From assembly GCA_009773355.1 (NCBI GenBank), contig WRPG01000002.1, positions 64,391 through 128,390 on the forward strand: DNA of 64,000 nucleotides. Direction: 5' to 3'. The notes below the pieces were generated by a model. It was not told where the DNA came from. It saw only the letters and a list, made by a program, of their open reading frames with translations, and ran no database searches. The position numbers and the translations under genes are program-made. The stretch's first letter is position 1; every line of letters begins with the position of its first letter. Source of the stretch: Limisphaerales bacterium (GTDB lineage Bacteria > Verrucomicrobiota > Verrucomicrobiia > Limisphaerales > SXTU01). Shown piece by piece: positions 8,335-44,658 of this stretch.

Positions 8335-8547
8335 ATGCAATCAATGGCAGATTGGATTTCCGTCAAACGGCGGGAGCACAACTTGAGGCCCTGTGATCTG
8401 GCCGCGAAAATGGGTATTGCATCGGCCCTGATTCTTTCTTGGGAAAGTGGCAAAAGCCAGCCCGACCGCAAACAGCTTCAAGATTTGGAAAACTGTTTGG
8501 GATTGGGTTCACAAAACTGCTTAATCAACCCTCCCTCGCCGGAGTAA
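8335..8547 (+). CDS. XRE-family helix-turn-helix protein
   Basis: MQSMADWISVKRREHNLRPCDLAAKMGIASALILSWESGKSQP is a typical HTH_3 pattern. Internal ATG of track ORF 8167-8547. Confidence 0.6.
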   Translation: MQSMADWISVKRREHNLRPCDLAAKMGIASALILSWESGKSQPDRKQLQDLENCLGLGSQNCLINPPSPE

Positions 8548-9103: not shown

Positions 9104-9105
9104 GG

Positions 9106-9429: not shown

Positions 9430-9506
9430 GTGATTGAAGCGCACGAACTCCGGGCGAGTTCAGACTCACAGTATCGGAATGGGGAAATTGCCCAAGACGT
9501 GAACCT

Positions 9507-9522
9507 TTGCCGGAAGCGGCAA
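9507..9522. promoter_or_regulatory. TTGCCG-N4-CGGCAA palindrome (candidate operator) in a divergent intergenic region
   Basis: Perfect TTGCCGGAAGCGGCAA, 78 nt upstream of the ATG at 9429 (minus strand) and 157 nt upstream of 9679 (plus strand). Confidence 0.4.
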
Positions 9523-9678
9523 CTTTTCACTTAAAAACCGAGCCTCGAATGCTCGGTTGGAGTGGCGATATCAAAGCACACAATTCGTTCTTCGTCAAAT
9601 GCAGTGGCGGTGAACTTGCCGGATGGGGCAAACCTGCCCCTCTTTTTCCATCCCTCCTGCGCCGATAGAGTGGACGGC

Positions 9679-9849
9679 ATGAAAACACCAAACCAATTGA
9701 GCCGGGAGGCCATCGACGAGTTCAAAACCATTTACCAGGAGGAATTTGGCAAGTGTCTGACCGACGATGAAGTTCAGGAAATCGCCCTGCGCTTGCTGCG
9801 CTTCTTCGGGATTCTGAATGGGTCAATTCCCGACGAAACCGTGGATTAG
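9679..9849 (+). CDS. hypothetical small protein
   Basis: MKTPNQLSREAIDEFKTIYQEEFGKCLTDDEVQEIALRLLRFFGIL. Sits directly upstream of the recombinase gene. Confidence 0.4.
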   Translation: MKTPNQLSREAIDEFKTIYQEEFGKCLTDDEVQEIALRLLRFFGILNGSIPDETVD

Positions 9850-9943: not shown

Positions 9944-11794
9944 ATGCCTGGATATTTCATTTATTGCCGCAAATCATCCGAGGCCGAAGACCGGCAGGTT
10001 CTTTCCATTGAATCGCAAACCCGCGAGTTGGAGCAGCTCGCGGCCAAGTTGAATCTGCCCGTGACGGAAATTCTGACTGAATCCAAATCCGCCAAAGACC
10101 CAGGGCGTCCGGTGTTCAACAAAATGATGCAACGACTCTACCGAGGTGAAGCCGCCGGCATCATCTGCTGGAAGCTTGACCGTCTGGCGCGCAACCCGGT
10201 GGACGGCGGCTCCATCATCTGGGCCATCAAACAGCACGGCATCCGGGTGCTGACCCCGGCCCAGAGCTACGCCCGCGAGGACGACAACATCATCCTCATG
10301 TATATCGAGTTCGGTATGGCGCAAAAATACGTGGACGACTTGAGCAAGAACGTGAAGCGCGGGCTCAAGACCAAGATTGAAAATGGCTGGTATTCGGGGG
10401 TCGCCCCGGCGGGTTACCTGAACCACACCGACAAGCGGACGGGTGAAAACACCCTGGTCATCGACCCGGAGCGCTTCCCACTCATCCGGCGCATGTGGGA
10501 CTTGATGCTGACCGGCCTCCACACCCCGCCAAGGATTCTGGAAACCGCGAATCAGGAATGGGGCTTTCGCACCCGCCCGACCCGCAAGATGGGCGGCAAA
10601 CCTCTCGGTCGCAGCACCATTTACAAAATCTTCACCAAGCCGTTCTACTACGGTTGGTTTGAATACCCGAAAGACAGCGGCCAATGGTATCAGGGCAAGC
10701 ACGAGCCGATGATCACCGAGGCGGAGTATGACCGCGTGCAGGCGTTGCTGGGCCACAACGGGAATCCCCGGCCGCAGTCGCACCCCGAGTTTGCCTTCAC
10801 GGGGATCATCCGCTGCGGGGACTGCCGGCAAATGGTGACCGCCGAGGAGAAGCATCAGGTCATCTGCGGCTCCTGCCGGTTCAAGTTCGCCCACCGCCGG
10901 CACGAGGCCTGTCCGCGTTGTCAGACGTCGATGGAGAAGATGGTCAATCCGCACTTTCTCCGCTACACGTATTACCACTGTGCCAAAAGCAAACTACCCA
11001 GATGCCAACAAAAGAGCATCAGTGTCCAAAAGCTGGAACAGCAGATCGCGCAGAGTCTAGCCCGCATCCACATCTCCGAGAAGTTCAAAGGATATTGCCT
11101 CAAATACCTGCATGAGCTGCACGCGCAGGAGAGCGCCCCACGAACCGCCATCATTGAGGCCCGACAGAAGGCGCATCAGGAGTGCGCGCGGCAGATTGAC
11201 AGTCTGGTGAAGCTCAAAACCTCGGCTGGAAACATGGACGGCTGCTTGTTATCCGACGAAGAATACGCCCGGCAACGGAGCGGGCTGCTCAAGGAAAAAG
11301 CTACCTTGGGGCAGTTGCTCCAGAACGGCGGGGCTTGGGTGAAGCAGCAGTTGAAGCTCTCCGAGCAGACCTTTGCCTTCGCCAGCACCGCGCAGGCACG
11401 GTTTGCCAAAGGCGGTCCCAAGACCAAAAAGGAGATGTTGCTGACATTTGGATCGAACCTGACTTTGAAGGACAAAAAGCTCTGCATTGAAGCCAGGGAA
11501 CCGTTCGTCATCCTGCAAAAGTCATTGTCCGCTGACGATCCCGAAACCGACCACATCGAACCTGAAAATATCGGCTCGCCATATATGCAAAAAGAGGCTT
11601 TCGCCTCTCTTTGTCCACACCTGCGGGGAGGCTTGGACGATGTTCGCGCCTACGGCATGAAAGCGGAACGCGCAGCCGCGTTGATTTACACTCACTTCAA
11701 ACGTGAGTTGGCTCTCAACGCCAAACTGTCCACCAAGCAAGTTCGTCTAGACGCTACTGCTCACGCTGACTCCACCGGGCAATTTCCCGCGTAA
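9944..11794 (+). CDS. large serine recombinase (resolvase catalytic domain, recombinase domain, zinc ribbon, coiled coil)
   Basis: N-terminus YCRKSSEAEDRQVLSIESQ (catalytic Ser) and WKLDRLARN. Recombinase domain GWYSGVAPAGY. Cys cluster CGDCRQ..CGSC..CPRC. 616 aa. Confidence 0.9.
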   Translation: MPGYFIYCRKSSEAEDRQVLSIESQTRELEQLAAKLNLPVTEILTESKSAKDPGRPVFNKMMQRLYRGEAAGIICWKLDRLARNPVDGGSIIWAIKQHGIRVLTPAQSYAREDDNIILMYIEFGMAQKYVDDLSKNVKRGLKTKIENGWYSGVAPAGYLNHTDKRTGENTLVIDPERFPLIRRMWDLMLTGLHTPPRILETANQEWGFRTRPTRKMGGKPLGRSTIYKIFTKPFYYGWFEYPKDSGQWYQGKHEPMITEAEYDRVQALLGHNGNPRPQSHPEFAFTGIIRCGDCRQMVTAEEKHQVICGSCRFKFAHRRHEACPRCQTSMEKMVNPHFLRYTYYHCAKSKLPRCQQKSISVQKLEQQIAQSLARIHISEKFKGYCLKYLHELHAQESAPRTAIIEARQKAHQECARQIDSLVKLKTSAGNMDGCLLSDEEYARQRSGLLKEKATLGQLLQNGGAWVKQQLKLSEQTFAFASTAQARFAKGGPKTKKEMLLTFGSNLTLKDKKLCIEAREPFVILQKSLSADDPETDHIEPENIGSPYMQKEAFASLCPHLRGGLDDVRAYGMKAERAAALIYTHFKRELALNAKLSTKQVRLDATAHADSTGQFPA

Positions 11795-11969
11795 TGATCT
11801 CCACAGATTCATTCGTCTCTTGAAGCTGTTTAAGAATCCGTTTCCCCTGCTCGATGCAGACCCGATGGTGCAGCGTGAGCCGGCGGGCGAGCGGGCGCAC
11901 GACCCAGCGGGTAAAATCATACGGCTGCAGCGGACACGAACACTTCTTGGTGTGGTTTGATTTTGACAT
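11754..11969 (-). CDS. hypothetical small protein, convergent with the recombinase and overlapping its 3' end
   Basis: ATG at 11969 (MSKSNHTKKCSCPLQPYDF..). A degenerate TTGCCG-N4-CGGCAA site lies 47 nt upstream at 12016-12031. Confidence 0.35.
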   Translation of the reverse strand: MSKSNHTKKCSCPLQPYDFTRWVVRPLARRLTLHHRVCIEQGKRILKQLQETNESVEIITREIARWSQREQ

Positions 11970-12015
11970 GTCCACAGGATACCGGCGCGCAGTGGCAGAA
12001 CAAAGAAGCCGAACT

Positions 12016-12031
12016 TTGCCGGAGGCGGAAA
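12016..12031. promoter_or_regulatory. TTGCCG-N4-CGGAAA (one mismatch) candidate operator
   Basis: Lies in the divergent region between 11969 (minus) and 12113 (plus). On the minus strand the flanks resemble the 63-nt repeat: ccgcctccggcaaagtt..gcgcgccgg. Confidence 0.35.
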
Positions 12032-12112: not shown

Positions 12113-12472
12113 ATGGCAATCGACATCAAGAAATACCTCGCACTGCGAAACGCACTCGTCAACGAGAAGGCGAACATCGAAGCCCGATTGAAGCAAATCT
12201 CCCAGGTTACCGGCGATGCAGGACAGGTGCCCGCCTCTGCTCCGGCTTCACCCGGTGGTAGGCGGAAATTCAGCGAGGCCACCAAAGCGAAGATGCGCGC
12301 GGCACAGCAGGCTCGATGGGCGAAGGTGAAGGGCAAGGCCGGAAAAGCGGCGGCCAACGCACCAAAAGGTAAGCGGAAGATGAGCGCAGAGGGTCGGGCC
12401 GCTATTGCTGCTGCTGCCAAGGCGCGATGGGCCAAGGTGAAGGCCGCCGGCAAGACCACGCTGGCTGGCTGA
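12113..12472 (+). CDS. small basic coiled-coil protein with ..AAxKARWAK.K repeats; island paralog of 5837-6175
   Basis: 119 aa. Collinear with the chromosomal copy, including both ARWAKVK repeats. Confidence 0.6.
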   Translation: MAIDIKKYLALRNALVNEKANIEARLKQISQVTGDAGQVPASAPASPGGRRKFSEATKAKMRAAQQARWAKVKGKAGKAAANAPKGKRKMSAEGRAAIAAAAKARWAKVKAAGKTTLAG

Positions 12473-12746
12473 CTCGTCTTATCAGCAGTCTTTTCGCCTT
12501 CTCACGGAGGGGTTTGTCTCGTCCGCCTGCTAACAGTCCAGCGACAACTCGTAGCGCTTCGACGCTGTTACAAACTTTACATTTCCCATAGATGCTTTGC
12601 AAATGGGCATTAACCGTGAAGACACTCACATCAATCTGCTTGGCAATCTCTTTGCTTTCTATCCCTTGCGCCAGCCACTTCAATACTTCATTCTCACGCG
12701 CAGTCAGTTTCGGATACGCCGCCAAGCGGGGATTGGATTCCGTCAT
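12402..12746 (-). CDS. LuxR/GerE-type HTH domain protein; probable 5'-truncated NarL-family response regulator
   Basis: LTARENEVLKWLAQGIESKEIAKQIDVSVFTVNAHLQSIYGKCKV is a GerE HTH. A receiver-domain tail (AALRAGASGYATKP) sits upstream in another frame at about 12830-12873, with no further receiver sequence. Confidence 0.6.
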   Translation of the reverse strand: MTESNPRLAAYPKLTARENEVLKWLAQGIESKEIAKQIDVSVFTVNAHLQSIYGKCKVCNSVEALRVVAGLLAGGRDKPLREKAKRLLIRRVSQPAWSCRRPSPWPIAPWQQQQ

Positions 12747-13140
12747 CGCCGTCTGTATAAGCCGCAATCGGGTGGCCGCTAGCCATCGTCTCTTTTTTCA
12801 CCCCGGCCAGTATGGTCCGTTCGCAAGGCTTGGTAGCATACCCACTCGCGCCAGCTCGGAGTGCTGCTAACCGCTTTCTAGCGACTTATTTTGCAGTCAT
12901 CGCGAAGCTAATCCTTTTTAGTTAAGGAGAAGGTTGAGGCTTTTATTTTAGCTGTCCGGTGCCTCCGATCCTTTGGAGATGGATTCGGCTGAGGCTGAAG
13001 CCCGGATTCTGAAAGCTATCTTCCAACGCGTTTGAACACCTCGCTTGCGCCCTGGGCGGTCCTGTCAGTGTCCGAAATGACTTGCAGGTAGTCTGGCAGC
13101 GACGTATTCAAACGGCGACATTTCTCCCAACCCGACTATC

Positions 13141-13791
13141 ATGAGCGCACGCATCACCATCAGTCTGGTGGAAGACCATGAGGACACCCGTGAAGTCTTG
13201 CGGCGCTCGTTGGCGCGCCAGCCCGACTTTGCCGTGTTGGACGAATTCGCCGACGCCGAATCCGCCCTCAGCCGCGTGTCCGCCCGCCTTCCCCACATTG
13301 TCCTCGTGGACTGGCATCTCGGCGAAGGCCGCATGGACGGCCTCGAATTCATCCGCTGCATCAAGGCCCTGCATCCCGGCCTCTGCTGCCTGCTCATCAC
13401 CGCCTATGATCTTGAGCATCTGCCTATCGAGGCCGTCCGCTCCGGGGCGGATGGCTTCATCTACAAATCGGATTCCCTCGCCTCGCTTCCGAGGCGCATT
13501 CGCGCAGCCCATGCCGGCGAGTTTCCGTTCTCCCCCCGGGCGGCCGGGAAGGTTGTCTCCATCGTCCGCGAGGAAGCCGCCGCGGCCCGCGTCGCTCTGA
13601 AAAAGCTCACCGCGCGCGAACGCGAAATCCTGCTGTTCATGCGCGGAGGCCCGACCGAGAAGCAAGCAGCCGCCCACTTCGGTCTTTCCGCCAAGACCAT
13701 CCACAACCACCTCAACAGCGCCCACGGCAAACTCGGCGTCCACAACCGCGCTGAAGCCCTGGCGCTTTTGCGCGGGGACCGCATGGGATAA
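13141..13791 (+). CDS. NarL/FixJ-family response regulator (receiver plus LuxR HTH), orphan
   Basis: Receiver motifs SLVEDHEDTRE and VLVDWHLGEG (phospho-acceptor Asp). HTH motif LTAREREILLFMRGGPTEKQAAAHFGLSAKTIHNHL. No histidine kinase nearby. Confidence 0.85.
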   Translation: MSARITISLVEDHEDTREVLRRSLARQPDFAVLDEFADAESALSRVSARLPHIVLVDWHLGEGRMDGLEFIRCIKALHPGLCCLLITAYDLEHLPIEAVRSGADGFIYKSDSLASLPRRIRAAHAGEFPFSPRAAGKVVSIVREEAAAARVALKKLTAREREILLFMRGGPTEKQAAAHFGLSAKTIHNHLNSAHGKLGVHNRAEALALLRGDRMG

Positions 13792-20055: not shown

Positions 20056-20071
20056 TTGCCTGAGTTGGCAA
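20056..20071. promoter_or_regulatory. TTGCCT-N4-TGGCAA variant of the island palindrome
   Basis: TTGCCTGAGTTGGCAA, 212 nt upstream of the ATPase ATG at 20283. Same 16-nt geometry as the other sites. Confidence 0.35.
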
Positions 20072-20282
20072 GTTTCCGCGTCTGGATGGGAATCCCGTCT
20101 CCGCATATCCTGTGAGCGAAAGCCTCCCCATTCGGATTTCAAAACCAGCCGCCATTACCTCACCGGCCTGTCCCCAAACACTCTGCCGGCGTTTGCGCAC
20201 TTCGACTACACGCCACCACGGAAGGAAGTTCAACGACACGGGCACTTCCTCCGTGACCGGAGTGGCGGCTGGTTTTGCAACC

Positions 20283-21662: not shown

Positions 21663-23138
21663 ATGGCTTTCAAATACTCACTTTTAATCGGCGTGGAGAA
21701 GTTTATCGATCCAAAGATTCCCAACGTTGGCCACGCCCAAAAGGACGCGGAGGCTTTGGCCGCAGTCTTGACAAAGATTGGCTATTCGCAAAGCGAGCAG
21801 ACTATCTTGGTGAACGAAAAGGCAACATGCACAAACGTCAAATACAATTTGAAGCAGATACTACGTTGCGCGAAGCCAGAGGATAGCATCCTCATTTTCT
21901 TTTCGAGTCACGGCTATTCCAACGGCGGAAAAACGTATCTTGTGTGCTACGACACACGTCAAGGTGACATGATCGGAACTTCAGAATCCTTGGAAGAAGT
22001 CTTTGCGCTATTGCGGACGACAGAAAGTAAACAAGTGCTTCTTTTCTTGGATTGCTGCCACGCAGGTTTGCAGTTTCCAGAGGGTGAAAAGAGTCTGTTA
22101 GCAACAATGACTTATGATGAAGTTCAAGAGTTCTTTAGTCAAAGCGAATACCGCGCTGCCTTCGCTTCGTGTAAGGATTCAGAAAAGTCTTACTGGTCTG
22201 ACGTTCTTGAGCACGGTGTCTGGACACATGTTCTTATTCAGGCCCTGGAAGGCAAAGAAAAAAGGATCTTAGAGGAAAAACGATACCTTCGTGCTGCCAA
22301 TTTGCAGGACTATCTCGCAAAGGCCGTCCCGGAACAATTGCGAATAGTGTTCTCGGAAAGGCGAACGCAGACGCCAATTCTTTTCGGCTCACTGAACAAT
22401 AATTTTCTTGTTGCGGATTTAGGCCCGCTCTTGGCGAAAGAAATATCTGAAACCGGAAATCAGGATTTTCCAGTAAAAGATTCCACATTCCGTAATGTTG
22501 AACGTGGTTCCGTAAAAAACTTAAGCGGTTTCGTAAAAGGACACAAAGTCCTTCCATATAAAAGCGCCGCCACGGAATCTTTTGTTCAAAACATTGGAGC
22601 TCCTGATGTAGAAGAAAAGGCCAATGAGCTATATGATCGGATTAAGAGCACGTTCGCTTATATTCGCAAAGATGTTAGCGTCTCCACGTCGGGGGCAAGT
22701 GCAAGTATCCGGGCAAAAGATTTCAATGTGGACTTTGAGCTTAAACAGAGCGCATCTGATCCAACTGAATACGTTTTAACCACTGAAGTCTCACACTTTT
22801 CGAGCCCCGCGATTGTTCATGCGGACACATTTAATGAAGTTTTCCAAGGAAATGTATCAACCCTCCGTATTGAGTTTCAGAACTCGCGAAATGTTGCGGA
22901 GTTTATTGATAAGATTGAAGAAACGCAAAACGAGGCGATTACGATCAATTCTTACCCGCCCGATAATTCTTTTTGTAAGTTCACAGTGGAGGGCGTATCG
23001 GCATCATTCGTTTTACACGCCAAACATTTGGATGTTAAACTGCCAGGAAAGCCTCCACGAGACATGGTTGAAGCACTGATTCAAGCAGGCAAAGTGTTGC
23101 TTCTGGATGACACAACGCCGAAGTTACTGACGCCGTGA
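21663..23138 (+). CDS. caspase-fold (peptidase C14-like) protease with an uncharacterised C-terminal domain of about 270 aa
   Basis: LLIGVEKF..AQKDAEALAAVL. His motif ILIFFSSHGY (H83). Cys motif LLFLDCCHAG (C131/C132). Markedly AT-richer than both neighbours. Confidence 0.7.
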   Translation: MAFKYSLLIGVEKFIDPKIPNVGHAQKDAEALAAVLTKIGYSQSEQTILVNEKATCTNVKYNLKQILRCAKPEDSILIFFSSHGYSNGGKTYLVCYDTRQGDMIGTSESLEEVFALLRTTESKQVLLFLDCCHAGLQFPEGEKSLLATMTYDEVQEFFSQSEYRAAFASCKDSEKSYWSDVLEHGVWTHVLIQALEGKEKRILEEKRYLRAANLQDYLAKAVPEQLRIVFSERRTQTPILFGSLNNNFLVADLGPLLAKEISETGNQDFPVKDSTFRNVERGSVKNLSGFVKGHKVLPYKSAATESFVQNIGAPDVEEKANELYDRIKSTFAYIRKDVSVSTSGASASIRAKDFNVDFELKQSASDPTEYVLTTEVSHFSSPAIVHADTFNEVFQGNVSTLRIEFQNSRNVAEFIDKIEETQNEAITINSYPPDNSFCKFTVEGVSASFVLHAKHLDVKLPGKPPRDMVEALIQAGKVLLLDDTTPKLLTP

Positions 23139-24149: not shown

Positions 24150-24165
24150 TTGCCCGGAACGGCAA
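24150..24165. promoter_or_regulatory. TTGCCC-N4-CGGCAA variant of the island palindrome
   Basis: TTGCCCGGAACGGCAA, 106 nt upstream of the primase ATG. The downstream flank resembles the 63-nt repeat. Confidence 0.35.
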
Positions 24166-24270
24166 ACCTTCCCCTCTGGTGGGTTTGAGCCGGGGCGGTA
24201 GGATGCTCGGTGGAGTCGGTTCAATTCTTGAGCCGCACAGTTCATCACAACCCAAAACCACAGGAGCACT

Positions 24271-25305
24271 ATGTCGAAATCAAAGTTCGTTGACTTCAGG
24301 GCCGTCAAAGCGGCCATCACCATGGAACAGGTGCTTGAGCACTACGGCCTGCTTTCCAAGTTCAAACGGAGCGGAGACAGCTTGAGCGGTCCCTGTCCGA
24401 TTCACAAAGGCAACAACCCGACACAGTTCCGGGTGAGCACCAGCAAGAACGTCTGGAACTGCTTTTCGGAATGCAAACACGGTGGCAACACCCTGGACTT
24501 CATTGCCCGGATGGACGACGTGAGCATTCTCGCGGCGGCCAACAAGGCCATTGAATGGTTTCAGCTCGATCCCGAAGCCATGTCAGGGGATTCCGAAGCC
24601 GAAGGCAGGGAGCCGAGTGAAGCGCCGAAGGCCGGGGATGTTCCCCGACCGAAGCCAGCCGCAAAACCGGCATCGGTTCAAGAGAACGGAACGCCCAACA
24701 AGCCGTTGCAGTTCCGGCTCGACAAGCTTGAGCGCACGCATCCCTACCTGACCGAGCGCGGCCTCACGCCGGAAACCATCGTGGACTTTGGCGTCGGCTT
24801 TTGTGCCAAGGGCATGATGGCCAATCTCATTGCCATTCCGATACACAACGTCGAGGGCAAGGTCGTGGCGTATGCCGGACGCTGGCCGGGTGAACCCGCC
24901 GAGGACAACCCGAAATACAAACTCCCACCCGGTTTCCGAAAATCGTTGGAGTTGTTCAATCTTGACCGGGCCTGCAAGGAATCACCCGACAAGCCGCTCG
25001 TCATCGTCGAAAGATTCTTCGGCGCGATGAAATTGCATCAGCACGGCTACCGTAAGGTGGTGGCCCTCATGGGCAGCACCCTGTCCGCCGCGCAGGAGGA
25101 GTTGATTCGCCGACACACCGACAGCAACAGCCAGGTCATCGTCATGCTCGACGAGGACGAGGCGGGCCACGCGGGGCGAGAGGACATCGCCGTGCGCTTG
25201 TCCCAGTTCGTCTTCGTGAAGGTTCACGCGTTCGAGAAGGAAGGAATGCAGCCGGAGCACCTGAGCGCCGAGGAAGTGCAGCAACTCATCGGAGGTGTCC
25301 TGTGA
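24271..25305 (+). CDS. DNA primase-like protein (CHC2 zinc finger plus Toprim)
   Basis: CPIHKGNNPTQFRVSTSKNVWNCFSECKHGGNTLDFI is a CHC2 finger. Toprim motifs: VIVERFFGAMKL .. VALMGSTLS .. VIVMLDEDEAGHAG. Confidence 0.8.
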   Translation: MSKSKFVDFRAVKAAITMEQVLEHYGLLSKFKRSGDSLSGPCPIHKGNNPTQFRVSTSKNVWNCFSECKHGGNTLDFIARMDDVSILAAANKAIEWFQLDPEAMSGDSEAEGREPSEAPKAGDVPRPKPAAKPASVQENGTPNKPLQFRLDKLERTHPYLTERGLTPETIVDFGVGFCAKGMMANLIAIPIHNVEGKVVAYAGRWPGEPAEDNPKYKLPPGFRKSLELFNLDRACKESPDKPLVIVERFFGAMKLHQHGYRKVVALMGSTLSAAQEELIRRHTDSNSQVIVMLDEDEAGHAGREDIAVRLSQFVFVKVHAFEKEGMQPEHLSAEEVQQLIGGVL

Positions 25306-25929: not shown

Positions 25930-25959
25930 GGGCGATCCATCACGGTTCGCTCTTTTTTT
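25930..25959 (+). terminator. imperfect hairpin plus T-tract
   Basis: GGGCGATCC-atcac-GGTTCGCTC followed by TTTTTTT. Confidence 0.5.
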
Positions 25960-25966
25960 CTTGCCT

Positions 25967-26029
25967 GCCGCCTCCGGCAAAGCTGCCCGTCTTCATCGAA
26001 ACGGCGCGGGGACCTACGCTTCAAGGTGG
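25967..26029 (+). promoter_or_regulatory. copy 1 of a 63-nt repeated promoter/leader element
   Basis: GCCGCCTCCGGCAAAGCTGCCCGTCTTCATCGAAACGGCGCGGGGACCTACGCTTCAAGGTGG. 40 nt upstream of the ATG at 26070. Confidence 0.6.
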
Positions 26030-26069
26030 ATAGTTCTTCACAAACCAACCACCAACAGAAAGGAAAAAC

Positions 26070-27143
26070 ATGAGTGCAGTTATGGCAGCACCAGAGCGGG
26101 TCAGTTTGTATTACCGCGAAGGATCATCGGACAAGGTGTATCAGGCCGCGATTGAACCGGCAGGTGAATTGTTCGTTGTCAACTTCGCCTACGGTCGGCG
26201 TGGCTCGACGCTCACGACCGGGACGAAGACGGCTTCACCCGTGGATTACGGCACGGCGAAGCGGATCTTCACCAAACTGGTCAACGAAAAGAAAGCCAAG
26301 GGTTACACCGAAGGCGAGAACGGCACGCCGTATCAGCACACCGACAAGCAAGCGTCGGGGATATTGCCCCAGTTGCTCAATCCCATCGAGGAAGCCGGCG
26401 TGGAGAGGCTGCTGCATGATGATGATTATTGCGCGCAGGAGAAATTCGACGGGCGGCATCTCCTCGTCCGCAAGCAGGACGAGCACCTCGAAGGCATCAA
26501 CAAGAAGGGATTGCTCATCGGATTGCCGGAGACCGTGTCAAACGACCTCCGCAAGCTGCCCGGCAGTTTCATTCCCGATGGTGAATCCGTCGGTGATGAT
26601 TATCACGTCTTCGACCTGCTTGAACTGAACGGTGAAAACGTGCGGCCATTGCCGTATCGGACCCGGCTCGCGCGGCTGGTGAACCTGTTTTCGTTCCGCA
26701 CGCAGCATCCTCATGTCCGATTGGTCGAGACCGCGTTCACGACCGAGCGGAAGACCGCACTGTGGCAGCGGTTGCGGCGGGAGAACCGCGAGGGCATCGT
26801 CTTCAAACGCTTGGATGCGCCCTACACGCCGGGCAAGCCTAGCAGCGGCGGAGCGCAGTTGAAATTCAAGTTCGTCGCCACGCTGTCGGCGATTGTTGCC
26901 AAGGTGAACACCCGGCGCAGCGTGGAAATCAGCCTGCTCCAAGGCAGAAACCTGATTTCGTGCGGCAACGTCACCATCCCGGCCAATCACGACATTCCCA
27001 AAGTCGGTGCGGTCGTGGAAGTGCGCTTTCTCTACGCCCATCGCGAGAGTCACGCCCTCTATCAGCCGGTGTATCTCGGGCCGCGTGATGATGTGGAAGC
27101 CGGTGAGTGTCTGGCCGCTCAGCTCAAATACAAGGCAGAGTAA
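26070..27143 (+). CDS. WGR-domain / ATP-dependent DNA ligase fusion
   Basis: WGR: VSLYYREGSSDKVYQAAIEPAGELFVVNFAYGRRGS..AKRIFTKLVNEKKAKGYTE. Ligase motif I EKFDGRH. EGIVFKRLDAPYTPGK..LKFK (motifs IV/V). OB-like C-terminus. Confidence 0.8.
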   Translation: MSAVMAAPERVSLYYREGSSDKVYQAAIEPAGELFVVNFAYGRRGSTLTTGTKTASPVDYGTAKRIFTKLVNEKKAKGYTEGENGTPYQHTDKQASGILPQLLNPIEEAGVERLLHDDDYCAQEKFDGRHLLVRKQDEHLEGINKKGLLIGLPETVSNDLRKLPGSFIPDGESVGDDYHVFDLLELNGENVRPLPYRTRLARLVNLFSFRTQHPHVRLVETAFTTERKTALWQRLRRENREGIVFKRLDAPYTPGKPSSGGAQLKFKFVATLSAIVAKVNTRRSVEISLLQGRNLISCGNVTIPANHDIPKVGAVVEVRFLYAHRESHALYQPVYLGPRDDVEAGECLAAQLKYKAE

Positions 27144-27151
27144 CAACACAA

Positions 27152-27179
27152 GGGCGATCCAATTGGATCGCCCTTTTTT
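27152..27179 (+). terminator. rho-independent terminator
   Basis: Perfect GGGCGATCCAATTGGATCGCCC followed by TTTTTT. Confidence 0.75.
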
Positions 27180-27183
27180 GTTT

Positions 27184-27246
27184 GCCGCCTCCGGCAAAGC
27201 TGCCCGTCTTCATCGAAACGGCGCGGGGACATACGATTCAGGGTGG
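27184..27246 (+). promoter_or_regulatory. copy 2 of the 63-nt repeated element
   Basis: Identical to copy 3 and 3 mismatches from copy 1. Perfect TTGCCGCCTCCGGCAA at 27182-27197. 51 nt upstream of the ATG at 27298. Confidence 0.6.
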
Positions 27247-27297
27247 AATCACAGGGTTCTTTTCACATCATTACCACCCACAAAAAGGAGATTCAGT

Positions 27298-27627
27298 ATG
27301 GATGTTCATTGTTCAACCTGCGGGGAACCGTGGGACACATATCACCTCTGGCATGAGGCCGTGTTTGAAACGGGCTTGAGCCACGAGGAAGCCACGGCGT
27401 GGCGTTCACTGCCCCGCGCCGAGAAGCTCACCGAGCGTTACCGGCAGGAGTTCCGCGCCACTGGTTGGGAATTCGGCCAAGGCGTCATCAATGTCATTCG
27501 TTGCCCGGGCTGTCCCAAGGACGCACAACCCAACGTGGCTCGCGTTCACACCAAAGCCGCCTTGGAAGAACTCTTGGGTGACGACGAGGACGGACTGGCC
27601 GCCACCTTCGAGGACTACCGGTTATGA
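27298..27627 (+). CDS. hypothetical Zn-ribbon-like protein
   Basis: CSTCGEPW ... CPGCPKD Cys pairs. AAGGAG RBS 8 nt upstream. ATGA overlap with the next gene. Confidence 0.55.
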   Translation: MDVHCSTCGEPWDTYHLWHEAVFETGLSHEEATAWRSLPRAEKLTERYRQEFRATGWEFGQGVINVIRCPGCPKDAQPNVARVHTKAALEELLGDDEDGLAATFEDYRL

Positions 27628-28367
27628 TCCCCAAGAAACCGCCGCCCGGCGATTTCCGAAAAATCCTTGGACGCCTTTCCCATCGGCACAGCACCCGGCA
27701 AGTCTTCGACGCCTTCCTTTGCTTCGCAGCCTGTGCGCTCGCCGCCCAGACCCGCGAGGCGGAATACGTCGAAGAAGCCAAGCGCTGGGAAAAGCCGGAC
27801 TTGGAATTGTTCGCGGAAGCGTTCGCCGCGCTCGTCAGCGAAATGGAGTCCCGGCCCTTTGAAGACCTCATCGGCGGATACTACCTGGAGTTCGCCCTGT
27901 CCCAAAAGGGGCAGCAGTGGAACGGCGAGTTCCATACTCCCAAACCCATCTGCGACCTCATGGCCCGGATGACACTGGGCGATCTGGAATCATTGCCGGC
28001 GGAAGGCCCGATCACCGTTTGTGAACCGGCCTGTGGCGCGGGTGCGATGATTCTGTCGCTGGCCGAAGTCTGCCCGCCCGAGGTCCGCCGCCGTCTGCGC
28101 GTGACCGCCGTGGACATCAACCGCACCGCCTGCAACATGGCGTTCATCAACACGACCCTCTGGGGCATCCCCACGCGAGTCATCCACGGCAACTCGTTGT
28201 CCCTGGAATGTTGGGCCGCCTGGTCGAACATCCATTACCTCGCGCCGTGGTTGCCGCTGACGCTTCGCATCCAAACGCCCGAGGCGTTAGAACAAGGCCA
28301 GCCGCCGCAACCGGCTGAAATGGAGCGCATCAAGGCTTCCCTCGTTCAGCAGGAGCTGGTGTTTTGA
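27624..28367 (+). CDS. N6-adenine-methyltransferase-like SAM-binding protein lacking the catalytic (N/D)PP(Y/F) motif
   Basis: GEFHTPKPICDLMARM (motif X), VCEPACGAGAMIL (motif I), TAVDIN, IHGNSL. No NPPY/DPPY-type tetrapeptide anywhere and no target-recognition region. 247 aa. Confidence 0.65.
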   Translation: MIPKKPPPGDFRKILGRLSHRHSTRQVFDAFLCFAACALAAQTREAEYVEEAKRWEKPDLELFAEAFAALVSEMESRPFEDLIGGYYLEFALSQKGQQWNGEFHTPKPICDLMARMTLGDLESLPAEGPITVCEPACGAGAMILSLAEVCPPEVRRRLRVTAVDINRTACNMAFINTTLWGIPTRVIHGNSLSLECWAAWSNIHYLAPWLPLTLRIQTPEALEQGQPPQPAEMERIKASLVQQELVF

Positions 28368-28374
28368 TTCATCA

Positions 28375-28403
28375 CCCCTTTCGTTTTAACGGAAGGGGTT
28401 TTT
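28375..28403 (+). terminator. hairpin plus T-tract
   Basis: CCCCTTTCG-ttttaa-CGGAAGGGG followed by TTTTT. Confidence 0.6.
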
Positions 28404-28411
28404 CTATGCCT

Positions 28412-28474
28412 GCCGCCTCCGGCAAAGCTGCCCGTCTTCATCGAAACGGCGCGGGGACATACGATTCAGGGTGG
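28412..28474 (+). promoter_or_regulatory. copy 3 of the 63-nt repeated element
   Basis: Same 63-nt sequence as copy 2. 38 nt upstream of the ATG at 28513. Confidence 0.6.
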
Positions 28475-28512
28475 TTAGTTCTTCCACAAATCAACCACCA
28501 CAGGAGCATCAC

Positions 28513-29829
28513 ATGAAAAATCAGACATCGTATGATCGTATCACCGACCGTATCACCGCCTTGCTTACGCAAGGCACCGTTCCCTGGCACAAGCCGTGGA
28601 AAGCAAAGACCGGGCTGCCTCGGAACTTCGTCAGTCAAAAACCGTATCGCGGCATCAACGTCTTCTTGTTGATTGCCATGAGCTATGAATCACCGTTCTG
28701 GCTCACGTTCCGCCAGGCAGCACAGCTTGGCGCCTGCGTCCGCAAGGGCGAGAAGGCGTGCCCCGTCGTGTTCTGGAAACAGTGGCAGATTGAAGACAAG
28801 GACTCCGGCGAGCAGAAGAAGATTCCGCTGCTTCGCTTTCACCACGTCTTCAACGTCACCCAATGCGACGGGCTGAACATCGGCACCGAGCCGGTGCCAG
28901 CATCTGTCAATGGGATCTCCAAGCCAGAAGATATTGTGGCGCAGATGCCCCAGCCACCCGTCGTGAAGCACGGCATGTCCCGCGCCTATTATTCCCCTCA
29001 CGAAGATTGCGTGGGCTTGCCGACACGGGAACGGTTCGACACCCCGGAAGGCTACTACGCCACCTTGTTCCATGAGCTGGTCCATTCCACCGGCCACGAG
29101 AAGCGGTTGAAACGAGCCGCCCTCACGGAGTCCGCCGGCTTCGGTTCCAATCCCTACTGCAAAGAGGAATTGATTGCCGAAATGGGCGCGGCGTTTCTGT
29201 GCGGGCATGCTGAAATATCGGAGCGGGTGATTGACAACTCGGCGGCGTATCTCAACGGCTGGCTGGAGCAGTTGCAGAACGACAAAACTCTGATTGTGCA
29301 GGCGGCCGCACAGGCGCAGAAGGCCTGTGACTTCATCCTCGATGTCCGGCCCGAAGACGAAGGGCCGGCACCACAGCAGCCGAAGGAGTTCAAAGTCGTC
29401 GCGCTGCGGGAGTGCCCGACGCCTGAAGAAATGCAACTCTGCGACACGCCCCAGAGCGCCGCCGACTACTGGCGGGCGCACATCACCACGCACCCGTATT
29501 TCAACCCGGAGTGCGAATGCTTCGTGGTGTTGCACTTGAACACGAGGCGGCGCATCCGAGGCCACAACCTGGTTTCGACCGGCACGATGGACACGATTCT
29601 TGTCCATGCACGCGAGGTGTTCCGCACCGCCATCGCGAGCGGTGCGAGCGCCATTGTGCTCATGCACAACCATCCCAGCGGGGAGCCGGCACCGAGCGAA
29701 GCGGACATCAAAGTGACGCGCGACCTCATCCGGGCCGGGCAACTCCTAAAAATGGAGGTGCTGGACCACATTGTGGTCGGGAACCCAACGCATGCTAGTC
29801 TGCGGGAACTGGGATACTTCTTTCAGTGA
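28513..29829 (+). CDS. ArdC-like antirestriction protein (ssDNA-binding N-domain plus HExxH metalloprotease) fused to a RadC-like JAB/JAMM domain
   Basis: ArdC-N: GTVPWHKPW..PYRGINVFLL..PFWLTFRQAAQLGACVRKGEKA. Protease: TLFHELVHSTGHEKRL. RadC/JAMM: ASAIVLMHNHPSGEPAPSEADIKVTRDL. The track start at 28471 lies inside the repeat element. Confidence 0.8.
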   Translation: MKNQTSYDRITDRITALLTQGTVPWHKPWKAKTGLPRNFVSQKPYRGINVFLLIAMSYESPFWLTFRQAAQLGACVRKGEKACPVVFWKQWQIEDKDSGEQKKIPLLRFHHVFNVTQCDGLNIGTEPVPASVNGISKPEDIVAQMPQPPVVKHGMSRAYYSPHEDCVGLPTRERFDTPEGYYATLFHELVHSTGHEKRLKRAALTESAGFGSNPYCKEELIAEMGAAFLCGHAEISERVIDNSAAYLNGWLEQLQNDKTLIVQAAAQAQKACDFILDVRPEDEGPAPQQPKEFKVVALRECPTPEEMQLCDTPQSAADYWRAHITTHPYFNPECECFVVLHLNTRRRIRGHNLVSTGTMDTILVHAREVFRTAIASGASAIVLMHNHPSGEPAPSEADIKVTRDLIRAGQLLKMEVLDHIVVGNPTHASLRELGYFFQ

Positions 29830-36302: not shown

Positions 36303-38435
36303 ATGAAATTGCCAAGACAAACATTCGTGAGGATACTTGCATTCGCAGGCATCCTCACGATTCTTTGCCTTGGCCCATCCCTTTATGCCGTCACCAACAC
36401 CGTCACCTACGGCTACGACCCCCTTAACCGCCTTACAAACGCCGGATACTCTGACGGTTCCCGTGAGTCCTATTCCTACGATCCCGCTGGCAACCGCCTC
36501 ACTCGCATTACGCGTGGCCCAGCGATTCATAGTGACACGGTGCCTCCCTCCATTCCGTCTAATCTGACTGCTCAAGAAGTCTCCACGACACAGCTTCGGC
36601 TCCTTTGGAACCGTTCACCCGATACCGGCGGCTCCGGCCTTGGTGGCTATTCCATTTTCATAAACAACGTCCTTTACATCAACACCACGGCCACGAACCA
36701 ACTCGTGTCCGACCTCTCGCCCGGCAGCAATTACATCTTCACCGTCGCTGCATTCGACAGAGCAGCCAACACTTCCAGCGTCAGCCAATCTTTATCTCAC
36801 ACCGTGAGCAGTCCGCCAGCGATGACTGTGAATCCCACGAATCAGACCGCCTCAGTCGGTGACACCATCTCTTTCAGTGTCACCGCCACTGGAAATCCAA
36901 GCCCCAATTATCAATGGTGGTTCAACGGGAATACACCGATAAGCTGGGGAACGAACGCCACATTGATTTTGACCAACGTGCAGCCAGTGGCTGCGGGTAG
37001 TTACCGCGTGGTGGTGACGAATGTGGCGGGAAGTGTGACAAGTTTAGTGGCCACCTTAACAGTAAATGCACCAGCTACTGGCACAGTATTGGCCTGGGGA
37101 AAGAATGACTTTGGTCAAACGAATGTGCCCGTGGGCTTGAGCGGAGTAACGGCGATTGCAGCGGGAGGTAATCACAGCCTAGCCTTGAAAAACGACAGCA
37201 CCATGGTGGCATGGGGCAACCACTACTTTGGTCAAACGAATGTGCCCGCGGGCTTGAGCGGAGTAACGGCGATTGCAGCGGGAAATGGTCACACTGCGGT
37301 CTTGAAATACGACGGGACGGTGGTGGTGTTTGGAGACAATAGCTATGGCCAGATAAATGTGCCCGTGGGCTTGAGCGGAGTAACGGCGATTGCAGCGGGT
37401 GATTATCACATACTCGCGCTGAGGAACGATCGAACAGTGGTGGCATGGGGAGGCAATCAATTCGGCCAAATTCTGGTGCCCGTTGGCTTGAGCGGAGTAA
37501 CGGCGATTGCAGCGGGAGGTTATCACAGCCTAGCCTTGAAGAGTGACGGGACCGTGGTGGCATGGGGAGAAAACAACTTTGGCGGAACAACAATACCTAC
37601 GACTCTTGCTAACGTAACAGCGATTGCTGGGGGAAATGGTTACAGCGTAGCCTTGAGGGGAGATGGCACCGTGGTGGCATGGGGAAATAACGGCAGTGGC
37701 CAAACGGCGGTGCCGGAATCCTTAAGGGGGGTGACGGCAATTGCGGCTGGATGGTTCCACACGGTAGCGTTGAAAGATGACGGCACTGTAGCGGCATGGG
37801 GAAATAATGACAATGGCCAAACGACGGTGCCAGAATCCTTAAGGGGGGTGACGGCAATTGCGGCTGGACATTATCACACCGTGGCGCTGGTCGGAACAGC
37901 ACAGGCGGTTGCTCCAGCCATCACTGCGCAACCAACGAATGTCCTGTTACTGCGCACGAGCTTGGTGAATGTTCTTCCGGCCACCTTCAGCGTCGTCGCT
38001 ACCGGAACCGCGCCACTTCTCTATCAATGGCGCTTCAATGGCAGCGCCCTTCCCGGCGCAACCAATCCGGCATTTAACCTCGCCAATGTGACGCGGGTTC
38101 ACAATGGCCTCTACAGCGTCGTGGTTACGAACACCGTGGGGACAGCCATCAGTTCAAATGCACTCCTGCGGGTGCGCGTGCCGCAACGACTGGCCTTGCC
38201 GGAGCGGCTGGCCGACGGGCGGATGCGGCTGGGTTTTATTGATGACCTCGGTGGATTGCCAACCACTTTTGATGCCCCTTTCATTGAGGTGCAATTCGCG
38301 ACCAATCTGACAGCGAGCAACATTTTCTGGTTGCCGCTGACCAACGCCGTAACGGTCACGAACGGGATGCTGGTGGTGGACGAGGCGCCTGGCACGGTTG
38401 GCCCACACCGCTTCTACCGCGTGATCGAACGATGA
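36303..38435 (+). CDS. secreted multidomain protein: two YD repeats, FN3, Ig-like domain, eight RCC1-like propeller repeats, Ig-like domain
   Basis: Signal peptide ILAFAGILTILCLGPSLYA. VTYGYDPLNRLTNAGYSDGSRESYSYDPAGNRL. FN3 (LRLLWNRSPDTGGSGLGGY). Repeating WG.N.FGQT.VP..L.GVTAIAAG..H..AL. Ig-like ..YQWWFNG.. and ..YQWRFNG.. Confidence 0.8.
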   Translation: MKLPRQTFVRILAFAGILTILCLGPSLYAVTNTVTYGYDPLNRLTNAGYSDGSRESYSYDPAGNRLTRITRGPAIHSDTVPPSIPSNLTAQEVSTTQLRLLWNRSPDTGGSGLGGYSIFINNVLYINTTATNQLVSDLSPGSNYIFTVAAFDRAANTSSVSQSLSHTVSSPPAMTVNPTNQTASVGDTISFSVTATGNPSPNYQWWFNGNTPISWGTNATLILTNVQPVAAGSYRVVVTNVAGSVTSLVATLTVNAPATGTVLAWGKNDFGQTNVPVGLSGVTAIAAGGNHSLALKNDSTMVAWGNHYFGQTNVPAGLSGVTAIAAGNGHTAVLKYDGTVVVFGDNSYGQINVPVGLSGVTAIAAGDYHILALRNDRTVVAWGGNQFGQILVPVGLSGVTAIAAGGYHSLALKSDGTVVAWGENNFGGTTIPTTLANVTAIAGGNGYSVALRGDGTVVAWGNNGSGQTAVPESLRGVTAIAAGWFHTVALKDDGTVAAWGNNDNGQTTVPESLRGVTAIAAGHYHTVALVGTAQAVAPAITAQPTNVLLLRTSLVNVLPATFSVVATGTAPLLYQWRFNGSALPGATNPAFNLANVTRVHNGLYSVVVTNTVGTAISSNALLRVRVPQRLALPERLADGRMRLGFIDDLGGLPTTFDAPFIEVQFATNLTASNIFWLPLTNAVTVTNGMLVVDEAPGTVGPHRFYRVIER
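37125..37880 (+). repeat. tandem coding repeats of 117-120 nt (RCC1-like blades) with long identical DNA stretches
   Basis: GGCTTGAGCGGAGTAACGGCGATTGCAGCGGG recurs four times with about 117-120 nt period. CCTTAAGGGGGGTGACGGCAATTGCGGCTGGA recurs twice. Confidence 0.8.
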
Positions 38436-42606: not shown

Positions 42607-44097
42607 ATGAAGGACCATAGCGTCTTGAACAAACCGGTTGGCATCTGGATTCGGGTTTCCACCGAGGATCAAGCCAAGGGCGAAAGCCCGGAACACCACG
42701 AGGAACGTGCCCGAAGCTACGCCAAAAGCCGTGGCTGGCAGGTCAAGGAAGTCTATGACCTTGCCGGGCAAAGTGGCAAAGCCGTGATGCAGCACCCGGA
42801 GGCCAAGCGCATGATGAAGGACGTGGAACGCGGCCACATCAACGGCCTGGTGTTTTCCAAGCTGGCCCGCCTGTCCCGGAACCGCCGCGAACTGGAGGAT
42901 TTTTCCGATTTCTTCAACAGCCATCAGGCCGACCTCATTTCTTTGAGCGAGGCGATTGACACCAGCACCGCCGGAGGCCGGATGTTCTTTCATCTGCTTG
43001 GAGTCTTTGCACAGTGGGAACGCGAAGAAATAACGGAGCGCGTGAATGCGTCGGTGTTGACCCGTGCCAAACTTGGCAAATCCATCAACGGCAGCGCCCC
43101 GTATGGCTACCAGTGGAAGGAGCGCAAGCTGGTCATCCAACCAGAGGAAGCCGCCATTCGTCGCAAAACTTACGAGCTTTTTTTGCAGTGCCGTCGCAAA
43201 GGTCAGGTTGCCCGCGAATTGAACGCCGCCGGCTACCGCACTCGCAACGGCAACCTGTGGCGCGACACCTCGATTCTGCGGCTTCTGGACGAATCCAGCG
43301 CCAAGGGCGTCTATGTGTTCAACACCGTGCGCCAAACGGGAGACTGGCGCACCGAACCCAAACCAGAGAGCGAATGGGGCAAGGCCGAGTGCGAACCCAT
43401 CATTTCCGAAGACCACTGGAACCAGGTCAACCAGATCATCGAGGAGCAGTTGAAATCGTGGAAGAAGCCGGGCAAGCCGCCGGTGCATCTGTTCAGCGGC
43501 CTGGCCTTTTGTGCCTGCGGCAACAAGATGTATGTGGCGGCCAACAGCCCCAAATACTTCTGCCGGAAGTGCTCGAATCGCATTCCCATCACGGACTTGG
43601 AAAACATCGTCCGACAGGAGTTGAAGGTCTTTTTCGGCCAGCCGGAACGCATCGCCGGCCATTTGCAAGAAGCCGGCCGAAACCTGGCCGAAAAGTCCGC
43701 ATTGCTCGATGCGCACCAAAAGGAAATCCAGAAAGTGCGCGATGAGATGACGCGAACACATCGGCTCTACATCCAGGAACAAATCACCGCGCAGGGCTTC
43801 GGCGACTTCTACAAGCCCGCCGAAGCCCGGTTAAACCAGCTCTTGGCTGAACTGCCCAAACTCGAATCCGAGGTGGACTTCTTGAAAGTCAACAAGCTGT
43901 CTGCCGCTGATGTCCTCCATGAGGCCAGTTCACTCTACGACCGCTGGCCCGCATTGCCGCCTGCGGACAAACGGAAAGTGGTTGAAGCGCTCATTGAAAA
44001 ACTGGTGATTGGAAACGGCGAAATTGACATAACCTTCTCACATCTCCCATGTTCTGAAGAATTGTGCAAAAACCAACAGGGGTTAGGGCTAGGGTGA
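42607..44097 (+). CDS. large serine recombinase
   Basis: VGIWIRVSTEDQAKGESPEHH (catalytic Ser), VFSKLARLSRN, recombinase domain APYGYQW, Cys cluster CACGNK..CRKCSNR, C-terminal coiled coil. 496 aa. Confidence 0.9.
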   Translation: MKDHSVLNKPVGIWIRVSTEDQAKGESPEHHEERARSYAKSRGWQVKEVYDLAGQSGKAVMQHPEAKRMMKDVERGHINGLVFSKLARLSRNRRELEDFSDFFNSHQADLISLSEAIDTSTAGGRMFFHLLGVFAQWEREEITERVNASVLTRAKLGKSINGSAPYGYQWKERKLVIQPEEAAIRRKTYELFLQCRRKGQVARELNAAGYRTRNGNLWRDTSILRLLDESSAKGVYVFNTVRQTGDWRTEPKPESEWGKAECEPIISEDHWNQVNQIIEEQLKSWKKPGKPPVHLFSGLAFCACGNKMYVAANSPKYFCRKCSNRIPITDLENIVRQELKVFFGQPERIAGHLQEAGRNLAEKSALLDAHQKEIQKVRDEMTRTHRLYIQEQITAQGFGDFYKPAEARLNQLLAELPKLESEVDFLKVNKLSAADVLHEASSLYDRWPALPPADKRKVVEALIEKLVIGNGEIDITFSHLPCSEELCKNQQGLGLG

Positions 44098-44463: not shown

Positions 44464-44539
44464 GTAGCTCGACATTCCAATGTCGAGACCAGCCCGTCCA
44501 TCCCGCGCCGCCGCACTCGACATTGGAATGTCGAGCTAC
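44464..44539. repeat. REP/MITE-like double palindrome, same family as 1634-1697
   Basis: GTAGCTCGACATTCCAATGTCGAGAC ... CACTCGACATTGGAATGTCGAGCTAC. Confidence 0.7.
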
Positions 44540-44658
44540 CTTGGCGGTGTCACCCGGCTACACGAGCCGCAGTCATCAGCGTGCGGTTAGACCCCGGCAA
44601 GGCTGACTGAATCCGAGCGGCTGGACATGGCCCACGGCTGACTGCGTTTCCAAGAACG

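Follow-up and report, generated by a model that had tools for sequence, protein, structure and literature searches.

The subject of this analysis is a 63-nt element that occurs three times in a 64,000-nucleotide stretch of DNA from a Limisphaerales bacterium (contig WRPG01000002.1, positions 64,391 to 128,390; the whole stretch is called the window, and coordinates count from its first letter). The three copies lie within a low-GC island at about 8-46 kb (GC content 0.45-0.61, against about 0.61-0.68 in the flanks), which looks, by its sequence, like an integrated conjugative or mobilisable element. We hold, with good confidence, that the 63-mer covers about -60 to +2 of a promoter of the sigma70 type, which has a dyad operator and is predicted to belong to an element-wide regulon. 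In such a promoter, a palindrome (about -62 to -47) would be followed by an 11-nt linker, a weak -35 hexamer, a spacer of 16 or 17 nt, a -10 hexamer, a transcription start some 7 nt beyond it, a CA-rich leader without structure and a ribosome-binding site (RBS), while an upstream terminator would insulate each unit. From such insulation would follow that the ligase gene, the 109-aa open reading frame (ORF) with the methylase gene, and the ArdC gene are transcribed separately but share one control. At least five other operons of the element appear to be headed by the same design, and it is this recurrence that would make the regulon element-wide.

The first-pass annotation of the window had described the element as a degenerate 63-mer, and this is matched exactly at 25967-26029, 27184-27246 and 28412-28474 (+) and nowhere else in the window, when the chance expectation is zero (no match in 100 shuffles). 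Copies 2 and 3 are identical and copy 1 differs from them at three positions (A>C, A>C and G>A), as had been reported, and the distance to the start codon, given as 38-51 nt, is 40, 51 and 38 nt for the ATGs at 26070, 27298 and 28513. The terminator said to lie ahead of each copy is called by a terminator scan for copies 2 and 3 (27150-27175 and 28374-28399); upstream of copy 1, where the scan makes no call, an imperfect hairpin (25930-25952) followed by a run of seven T was read by eye. Orthologous terminators of the form GGGCGATCC...GGATCGCCC-T6 precede the promoter in related loci. The pair TTCATC-17-TACGMT is also present in the copies as claimed. Two further claims held in part: the palindrome TTGCCG-N4-CGGCAA, ascribed to every copy, is complete in copy 2 only, while copies 1 and 3 read CTGCCG, and the second hairpin, CCGT...ACGG, can be read in the sequence, though its structure is not conserved. 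The copies resemble one another over more than the 63 nt, the similarity reaching into the terminator on the upstream side and, downstream, across the CA-rich leader to the RBS.

The geometry shared by all members consists of the 16-bp palindrome TTGCCG-N4-CGGCAA, an 11-nt linker that usually ends in CGTC, a -35 hexamer TTnnnn, 16 or 17 nt, and a -10 hexamer TAnnnT. When the window is scanned for a palindrome with at most two mismatches, followed by 11 nt, 6 nt, 16 or 17 nt and TAnnnT, there are nine matches, to be compared with 0.16 (at most 2) in composition-preserving shuffles. Eight of the nine are intergenic, lie within the island, face a gene and have the palindrome exactly 11 nt from the -35 hexamer; the ninth, at 34022 inside an RHS gene, is probably due to chance. 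Besides the three copies, five diverged members are found, at 9522 (-), 9616 (+), 12031 (-), 20056 (+) and 24150 (+) (Table 1), those at 9522 and 12031 as diverged recurrences of the 5' part of the element, the other three as palindromes with one or two mismatches. The eight units served are thus headed by an XRE-family helix-turn-helix (HTH) gene with a RuvC-like gene, a 56-aa ORF with serine recombinase 1, a 71-aa ORF, a type IV coupling protein (T4CP)-like gene with a caspase-domain gene, a primase gene with DUF6166 and hyp98 genes, the ligase gene, the 109-aa ORF with the methylase gene, and the ArdC gene. The sigma70-type layout, TTnnnn-16/17-TAnnnT, is found with all intergenic instances facing a gene. 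Sigma54 and extracytoplasmic-function (ECF)-type readings of GGCA...TGC and GAAAC...CGAT were also considered and rejected; the spacings are wrong for such promoters, and relatives have not kept the GAAAC block.

Where transcription would start follows from a second regularity. In four unrelated gene families an ATG is read 6-7 nt past the -10 hexamer: in the 56-aa ORF (window, L014, L024 and L036, where L numbers denote related loci), the 71-aa ORF (window), a HicA-like gene (L023, L032 and L034) and a second XRE gene (L028). An ATG at the position expected for +1 suggests that these mRNAs are leaderless, and this would be evidence, independent of the conservation of the promoter, that TAnnnT is a real -10 hexamer. 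The same spacing rule, applied to the three copies, predicts starts near 26027, 27244 and 28472, and with these the 63-mer would extend from about -60 to +2.

A pattern scan for the element outside the window returned 3 genome loci and 29 metagenome loci, of which about 20 are real; the genome matches are all from Limisphaerales/Verrucomicrobiae metagenome-assembled genomes. Among viral contigs there was a single match, and its shown bases are identical to those of a chance hit in coding DNA (L007). With a profile of the three-copy type, single loci yield several copies (three in L002, three in L003, four in L025 and two in L029), which precede the same families as in the window: ligase, ArdC, DUF1281/Api92-like and the 109-aa protein. 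The related loci share synteny with the window, their proteins being 58-88% identical. Taking every locus together, 46 distinct instances were counted, with the consensus TTGCCGcttcCGGCAAag.T.ccCGTC-TT..t.-N16/17-TAcgcT and a spacer of 17 nt in 33 and of 16 nt in 13. What is kept across them is the palindrome, CGTC, the TT of the -35 hexamer and the TA...T of the -10 hexamer, while the spacers are unrelated between promoter types. As a control, the -10 geometry is present in none of eight chance matches to the search pattern in coding DNA. The suggestion of the first-pass annotation that the element is a portable regulated promoter is therefore supported by a geometry that persists in 46 instances despite unrelated spacers, by leaderless ATGs 6-7 nt past the -10 hexamer, and by a palindrome fixed 11 nt from the -35 hexamer.

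The palindrome hardly varies, and most of the variants that do occur are asymmetric (TTGCCC..CGGCAA, TTGCCG..AGGCAA, TTGCCG..GGGCAA, TTGCTG.. and TTGACC..); only two are symmetric, both TTGCCA..TGGCAA. From near-invariance together with asymmetric changes follows that a sequence-specific site for a dimer fits better than a stem. The half-sites are one helical turn apart, and 11 nt separate the palindrome from the -35 hexamer in every case, whatever the length of spacer and leader.

The most likely palindrome-binding factor, to judge from the arrangement of genes and sites, is the XRE-family HTH protein of 107 aa, whose closest solved relatives are the P22 C2 repressor and ImmR of ICEBs1. A perfect palindrome lies upstream of every XRE gene for which the 5' flank is in sequence, in the window and in relatives alike. 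In two further elements the XRE gene and the three-copy type share a contig (L009 with L032, and P0037 on the contig of L002). The pair of XRE and RuvC-like genes (window 8588-9429, -) recurs in L001, L014, L015, L019 and L034-L037; the RuvC-like gene (RNase H fold) always comes after the XRE gene, and the pair stands at the very edge of the element, beside host genes. Homologues of the XRE protein number 890 in public data. Even at 58% ArdC identity and 70% XRE identity the palindrome stays the same, so that a test for co-variation of protein and operator has no power, and the structure that AlphaFold2 predicted for the XRE protein from 30 aligned sequences (predicted local distance difference test score, pLDDT, 54; predicted template modelling score, pTM, 0.34) was too poor for use. 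A second small HTH-like ORF, at 8335-8547 (+) and containing …ADWISVKRREHNLRPCDLAAKMGIASALILSWESGKSQP…, lies at the left edge of the island, convergent with the RuvC-like gene, and is a possible regulator in its own right.

To describe how such a regulon might operate, assume that a dimeric regulator encoded by the element, most likely the XRE-HTH protein (9106-9429) under control of its own operator, binds the palindrome. Under repression, entry of the element into a naive recipient, where the regulator is absent, would give a burst of expression, on the pattern of Reg576 of p576 and of ArdK/CUP; such a burst would suit anti-restriction and establishment genes. We lean towards repression: XRE proteins of mobile elements are usually repressors, and anti-restriction genes must fire in the naive cell before any protein of the element exists. 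Activation in the manner of SetCD, from a fixed place upstream, is less likely in our view; in its favour are the poor -35 hexamers, a site clear of the core promoter, and a strict phasing like that at SetCD-dependent promoters (PMC4344509).

Several observations weigh against a promoter with a dyad operator bound by the XRE protein. The -35 hexamers are poor (TTCATC, TGGATG and TGGTGG), and a promoter scan with the Escherichia coli consensus does not call the element, too few of the 12 positions being matched; we know of no experimental basis for promoter rules in Verrucomicrobiota. The start site, the promoter activity and binding by any protein, XRE included, are all inferred from sequence, and other small or HTH ORFs are found nearby (8335-8547, 9679-9849, 11754-11969, 12402-12767 and 13141-13791). 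The centre of the palindrome, at about -54.5, is clear of the core promoter, which is unusual for simple repression. The search pattern fixed the palindrome and CGTCTT, so that their conservation among pattern-derived matches is partly built in, while the matches derived from nhmmer and from the geometry, and the -10 hexamer throughout, are free of this bias. Finally, two perfect palindromes, at 7496-7511 in L034 and 7611-7626 in L036, lack the standard -10 geometry; both adjoin serine recombinase and HicAB genes, that in L036 lying between convergent genes, and some palindromes may thus serve the regulator outside promoters of this design.

The promoter may also be real and its palindrome bound by a host regulator, or by a protein of the element other than XRE; in the former case the element would be tied to a host signal and not to an immunity-type regulator of its own. 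We consider this unlikely. The 16-bp layout with half-sites one turn apart is common to many families of dimers, and other candidates encoded in the island are a LuxR-type response regulator, a solo GerE HTH protein, the second small HTH protein and several small proteins without a known family. Yet the motif is limited to this element family in a search of 186,000 species genomes and the metagenome set, by a pattern that also required CGTCTT, and LuxR-type genes were not seen in the related loci examined, where the XRE and RuvC-like genes recur. A rather more improbable departure would be that the element is either a minimal hairpin signal for loading or priming on incoming single-stranded DNA, joined to an ordinary promoter and much shorter than Frpo, or the target of a new regulator that activates weak, partly leaderless promoters from about -54.5, i.e., of a new master-activator system in Verrucomicrobiota. 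A single-strand promoter or priming site of the Frpo or ssi kind, where a fold on the entering strand lets RNA polymerase or the DnaG-type primase of the element start ahead of second-strand synthesis, is to our minds very improbable as well. Such a site would suit ArdC, methylase and ligase, which are typical early establishment genes, in an element that encodes its own primase; the palindrome has a hairpin probability of 0.7-1.0 in the single strand, and, being symmetric, gives orientation no force as an argument against a hairpin role. The folding calculations, which the first-pass annotation had proposed for both strands, speak against it: neither the element nor the whole unit, as RNA or as DNA, folds with an energy outside what shuffles give (z from -1.75 to +1.8 on both strands, with DNA folds at -0.4 to -1.75), the -35 hexamer is paired at or below background (17 instances, both strands), and the -10 hexamer is paired in the ArdC copies only. 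The stem has only 5-7 bp, most variants break its pairing without compensation, and a fixed 11 nt to -35 and -10 hexamers of the duplex type points to a double-strand function. When terminator, promoter and leader together were used as a blastn query with 11-nt words, no match was obtained in 72,556 plasmids. The proposal of a short analogue of single-strand promoters finds no support, with fold energies no better than those of shuffles, a -35 hexamer paired no more than background and no match in plasmids.

If the element were a structured cis-regulatory RNA common to the three genes, either a 5' leader or a small RNA, one would expect a conserved structure in what is transcribed. The stretch from the 63-mer to the RBS is indeed semi-conserved, and a GGTGG...CCACC stem can form in all three window copies. 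From the predicted starts, transcripts would take in no more than the final 2-3 nt of the 63-mer, so that the shared 5' leader RNA put forward in the first-pass annotation finds no support; RNAalifold gives no consensus pair for 19 leaders, and the RNA fold z is between -0.9 and +1.8. Hairpin 2 (CCGT...ACGG, around the -35 hexamer) is 75% paired with no double changes, at or below the level of shuffles in 18 sequences; compensatory register shifts, which had been seen with three sequences, were gone with 18. Rfam finds no family at its gathering score in the whole window, and for the region, at E-values up to 1, only MicX, which at 24 bits against a threshold of 75, over the terminator, was taken as chance. 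We give an RNA of this kind next to no weight. A selfish or neutral repeat without a role in expression, similar to a repetitive extragenic palindrome (REP) or a miniature inverted-repeat transposable element (MITE), is just as hard to credit. The element is short, intergenic and palindrome-bearing, as such repeats are, and the three window copies are nearly identical. The first-pass annotation had taken copies scattered without orientation relative to genes as the sign of a plain REP; all window copies are instead inside the island, with none in about 26 kb of host flank, every one faces a gene at promoter distance, and their placement is orthologous in elements at 70-88% protein identity. 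A palindromic repeat of host type, at 1634-1700 and 44466-44542, looks nothing like the element.

Preferring, then, a regulated promoter, there is still the question of why its three copies are so alike. Orthologous promoters are 79-87% identical, to be compared with 78-88% for adjacent coding DNA. Among the three window copies identity is 94-98%, while among paralogues in L002, L003 and L025 it is 66-92%. Since the copies of the window are more alike than paralogues elsewhere, and each is more similar to the others than to its own orthologue, the copies were probably homogenised recently within the element, by gene conversion or recent duplication. The argument of the first-pass annotation, that strict conservation speaks for function, is in this way divided: the copies look functional, but their near-identity reflects homogenisation and not selection alone. 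Which genes lie between the repeats varies from element to element. L002, L003 and L025 have a DUF1281 cassette that is absent in the window, where the cassette of a 109-aa Cys-rich ORF and the methylase is found instead, a pattern that fits exchange of cassettes at the repeats. The DUF1281/Api92-like protein itself (MPNWCNNKL…; L002 3510-3947, also in L003, L009 and L025) is an extra cassette with the same promoter.

Table 1. Predicted promoter members of the island, their terminators and leaders, and the candidate regulator gene.
Feature	Coordinates	Strand	Details and basis	Genes served	Orthologues
Terminator before copy 1	25930..25959	+	Imperfect hairpin and T7, read from sequence	Ends primase-DUF6166-hyp98 unit	
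Palindromic operator (predicted), copy 1	25965..25980	+	CTGCCG-CCTC-CGGCAA, about -62 to -47; motif scan		
Core promoter (predicted), copy 1	25992..26020	+	-35 TTCATC 25992-25997, 17-nt spacer, -10 TACGCT 26015-26020; predicted start near 26027-26028, from geometry	WGR/ATP-dependent ligase gene 26070-27143	
CA-rich leader with RBS, copy 1	26029..26069	+	Semi-conserved, no consensus structure		
Terminator after ligase gene	27150..27181	+	Terminator scan: 11-bp stem, T-run		
Palindromic operator (predicted), copy 2	27182..27197	+	TTGCCG-CCTC-CGGCAA, perfect; motif scan		
Core promoter (predicted), copy 2	27209..27237	+	-35 TTCATC 27209-27214, -10 TACGAT 27232-27237; predicted start near 27244-27245	109-aa ORF 27298-27627 and N6 methylase 27624-28367	
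CA-rich leader with RBS, copy 2	27246..27297	+	Semi-conserved, no consensus structure		
Terminator after methylase gene	28374..28409	+	Terminator scan		
Palindromic operator (predicted), copy 3	28410..28425	+	CTGCCG-CCTC-CGGCAA; motif scan		
Core promoter (predicted), copy 3	28437..28465	+	-35 TTCATC 28437-28442, -10 TACGAT 28460-28465; predicted start near 28472-28473	ArdC-PolyVal-RadC gene 28513-29829	
CA-rich leader with RBS, copy 3	28474..28512	+	Semi-conserved, no consensus structure		
Diverged member	9468..9522	-	Perfect palindrome 9522-9507, -35 TTGGGC, 16-nt spacer, -10 TACTGT 9473-9468	XRE-HTH gene 9429-9106 and RuvC-like gene 9103-8588	L001, L014, L015, L019, L024, L034-L037
Diverged member	9616..9671	+	TTGCCG-GATG-GGGCAA, -35 TTTTTC, -10 TAGAGT 9666-9671; ATG 9679, predicted leaderless	56-aa ORF and serine recombinase 1 (9944-11794)	L014, L024, L036
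Diverged member	11976..12031	-	TTTCCG-CCTC-CGGCAA, -35 TTTGTT, -10 TATCCT 11981-11976; ATG 11969, predicted leaderless	71-aa ORF	
Diverged member	20056..20111	+	TTGCCT-GAGT-TGGCAA, linker ends CGTC, -10 TATCCT 20106-20111	Upstream of T4CP-like and caspase-domain genes	L020, L031
Diverged member	24150..24204	+	TTGCCC-GGAA-CGGCAA, -10 TAGGAT 24199-24204, leader like those of the three copies	Primase 24271-25305, DUF6166, hyp98	L002, L020, L031, L011
XRE-family HTH protein, 107 aa	9106..9429	-	Pfam HTH_3 match		

The genes of the island include two large serine recombinases (9944-11794 and 42607-44097), the T4CP-like ATPase and the caspase-domain protein, followed by a Replic_Relax relaxase, the DnaG-type primase (24271-25305), DUF6166 and then the three repeat-headed units, beyond which are RHS/RCC1 cargo and a TrwB-like ATPase. 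A full set of type IV secretion genes was not recognised in the island (8000-46000), and a tRNA scan of the window found none. The caspase-domain protein (Peptidase_C14, 21663-23138) directly follows the T4CP-like ATPase under the same type of promoter. In the 438-aa product of the ArdC gene (28513-29829), the ArdC N-terminal domain is fused with a PolyVal zincin metallopeptidase and a RadC/JAB domain, and tblastn matches of this fusion in related loci cover only about 280 aa. In ArdC promoters only, CATACG of the -10 region is complementary to CGTATG codons at the start of ardC (28460-28467 with 28526-28540; also in L002, L003 and L025), with a single-strand pairing probability of 0.8-0.97 for the -10 hexamer; this pairing is probably a coincidence that arises from conserved YDRI codons.

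A 119-aa protein of the island (12113-12472, +) has a repeated AAxKARWAKVKG motif and no Pfam match, and the same 35-nt repeat family (D5) is present in the host flank at 6019 and 6130 (ORF 5755-6240, +), which suggests a related small basic protein in host and element. Other coding tandem repeats are those at 37080-37898, with a period of 117 nt, which are the RCC1 repeats of a 710-aa cargo protein, and those at 54864-55241, with a period of 18 nt, in a proline-rich ORF of the host flank. The host-type palindromic repeat mentioned above is composite, with two inverted units GTAGCTCGAC(A/T)TTCCAA(A/T)GTCGAGAC around a GC-rich spacer; one site (1634-1700) is in the left host flank and the other (44466-44542) just to the right of serine recombinase 2, so that it may be a REP-type element of the host and could mark the right edge of the island.

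The promoters of Verrucomicrobiota have, to our knowledge, hardly been studied, and the analysis provides for the phylum (Limisphaerales) a promoter and operator model that can be tested, TTGCCGcttcCGGCAAag.T.ccCGTC-TTnnnn-N16/17-TAnnnT, leaderless starts included. It also defines a putative regulon for a widespread family of integrated conjugative elements. In these elements, every establishment or anti-restriction gene would be packaged with its own terminator, operator, promoter and leader as an insulated cassette, and the cassettes are apparently exchanged between elements. The value lies in the extension of a principle to a new phylum and in experimental parts and targets, not in a new mechanism.

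The principle is that of several promoters placed under one shared operator, of which control by KorA and KorB of RK2 is a further example. A close parallel in arrangement may be drawn with Reg576 of the Bacillus pumilus plasmid p576, which represses four establishment promoters, that of ardC included, from sites immediately upstream of the -35 hexamer and thereby allows a burst of expression after transfer (PMC6294495). There, as here, separate establishment promoters carry one short operator at a fixed place, and the gene of the regulator, or here of the candidate regulator, has the operator too; Reg576 regulates itself. In contrast, two ribbon-helix-helix dimers bind the operator of Reg576, in which TTATCCC is repeated directly (PMC6294495), while the present operator has inverted 6-N4-6 half-sites, stands 11 bp ahead of the -35 hexamer and has an XRE HTH protein as its candidate regulator; there is no sequence similarity, and the design, known here from sequence alone, also heads transfer, primase and recombinase operons. 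The repeated upstream sequences (CUP) before leading-region genes (ardB, ardK and repA) of the IncN plasmids pKM101 and R46 are similar in placement, and they carry the binding site of an autoregulated plasmid repressor, ArdK (Delver and Belogurov 1997, as cited in PMC6289460). They differ from the present repeats in sequence (no match in the plasmid collection), in phylum and in that the element here is integrated.

With the SetCD and AcaCD boxes of SXT/R391 and the IncA/C plasmids, the present promoters have in common a conserved box at a fixed position beside poor -35 hexamers, and the box of SetCD, a master regulator encoded by the element itself, heads about ten operons spread over that element, recombination and transfer genes among them, also back-to-back at divergent promoters (PMC4344509, PMC4207636). 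Unlike the palindrome at about -54.5, which has 16 bp, the SetCD box has 19 bp, abuts or overlaps the -35 hexamer (class II activation) and is bound by an activator of the FlhCD type; in the present element no homologue of FlhCD was seen. Frpo, a long hairpin that mimics the -35 and -10 hexamers of a duplex promoter (PMC11541004), and ssi sites are likewise upstream of anti-defence and establishment genes, often in several copies, but the present element has neither such a fold nor similarity to plasmid sequences. The kind of control proposed here is known from p576, IncN plasmids, RK2 and SXT; new are the sequence, the phylum and the presumed regulator.

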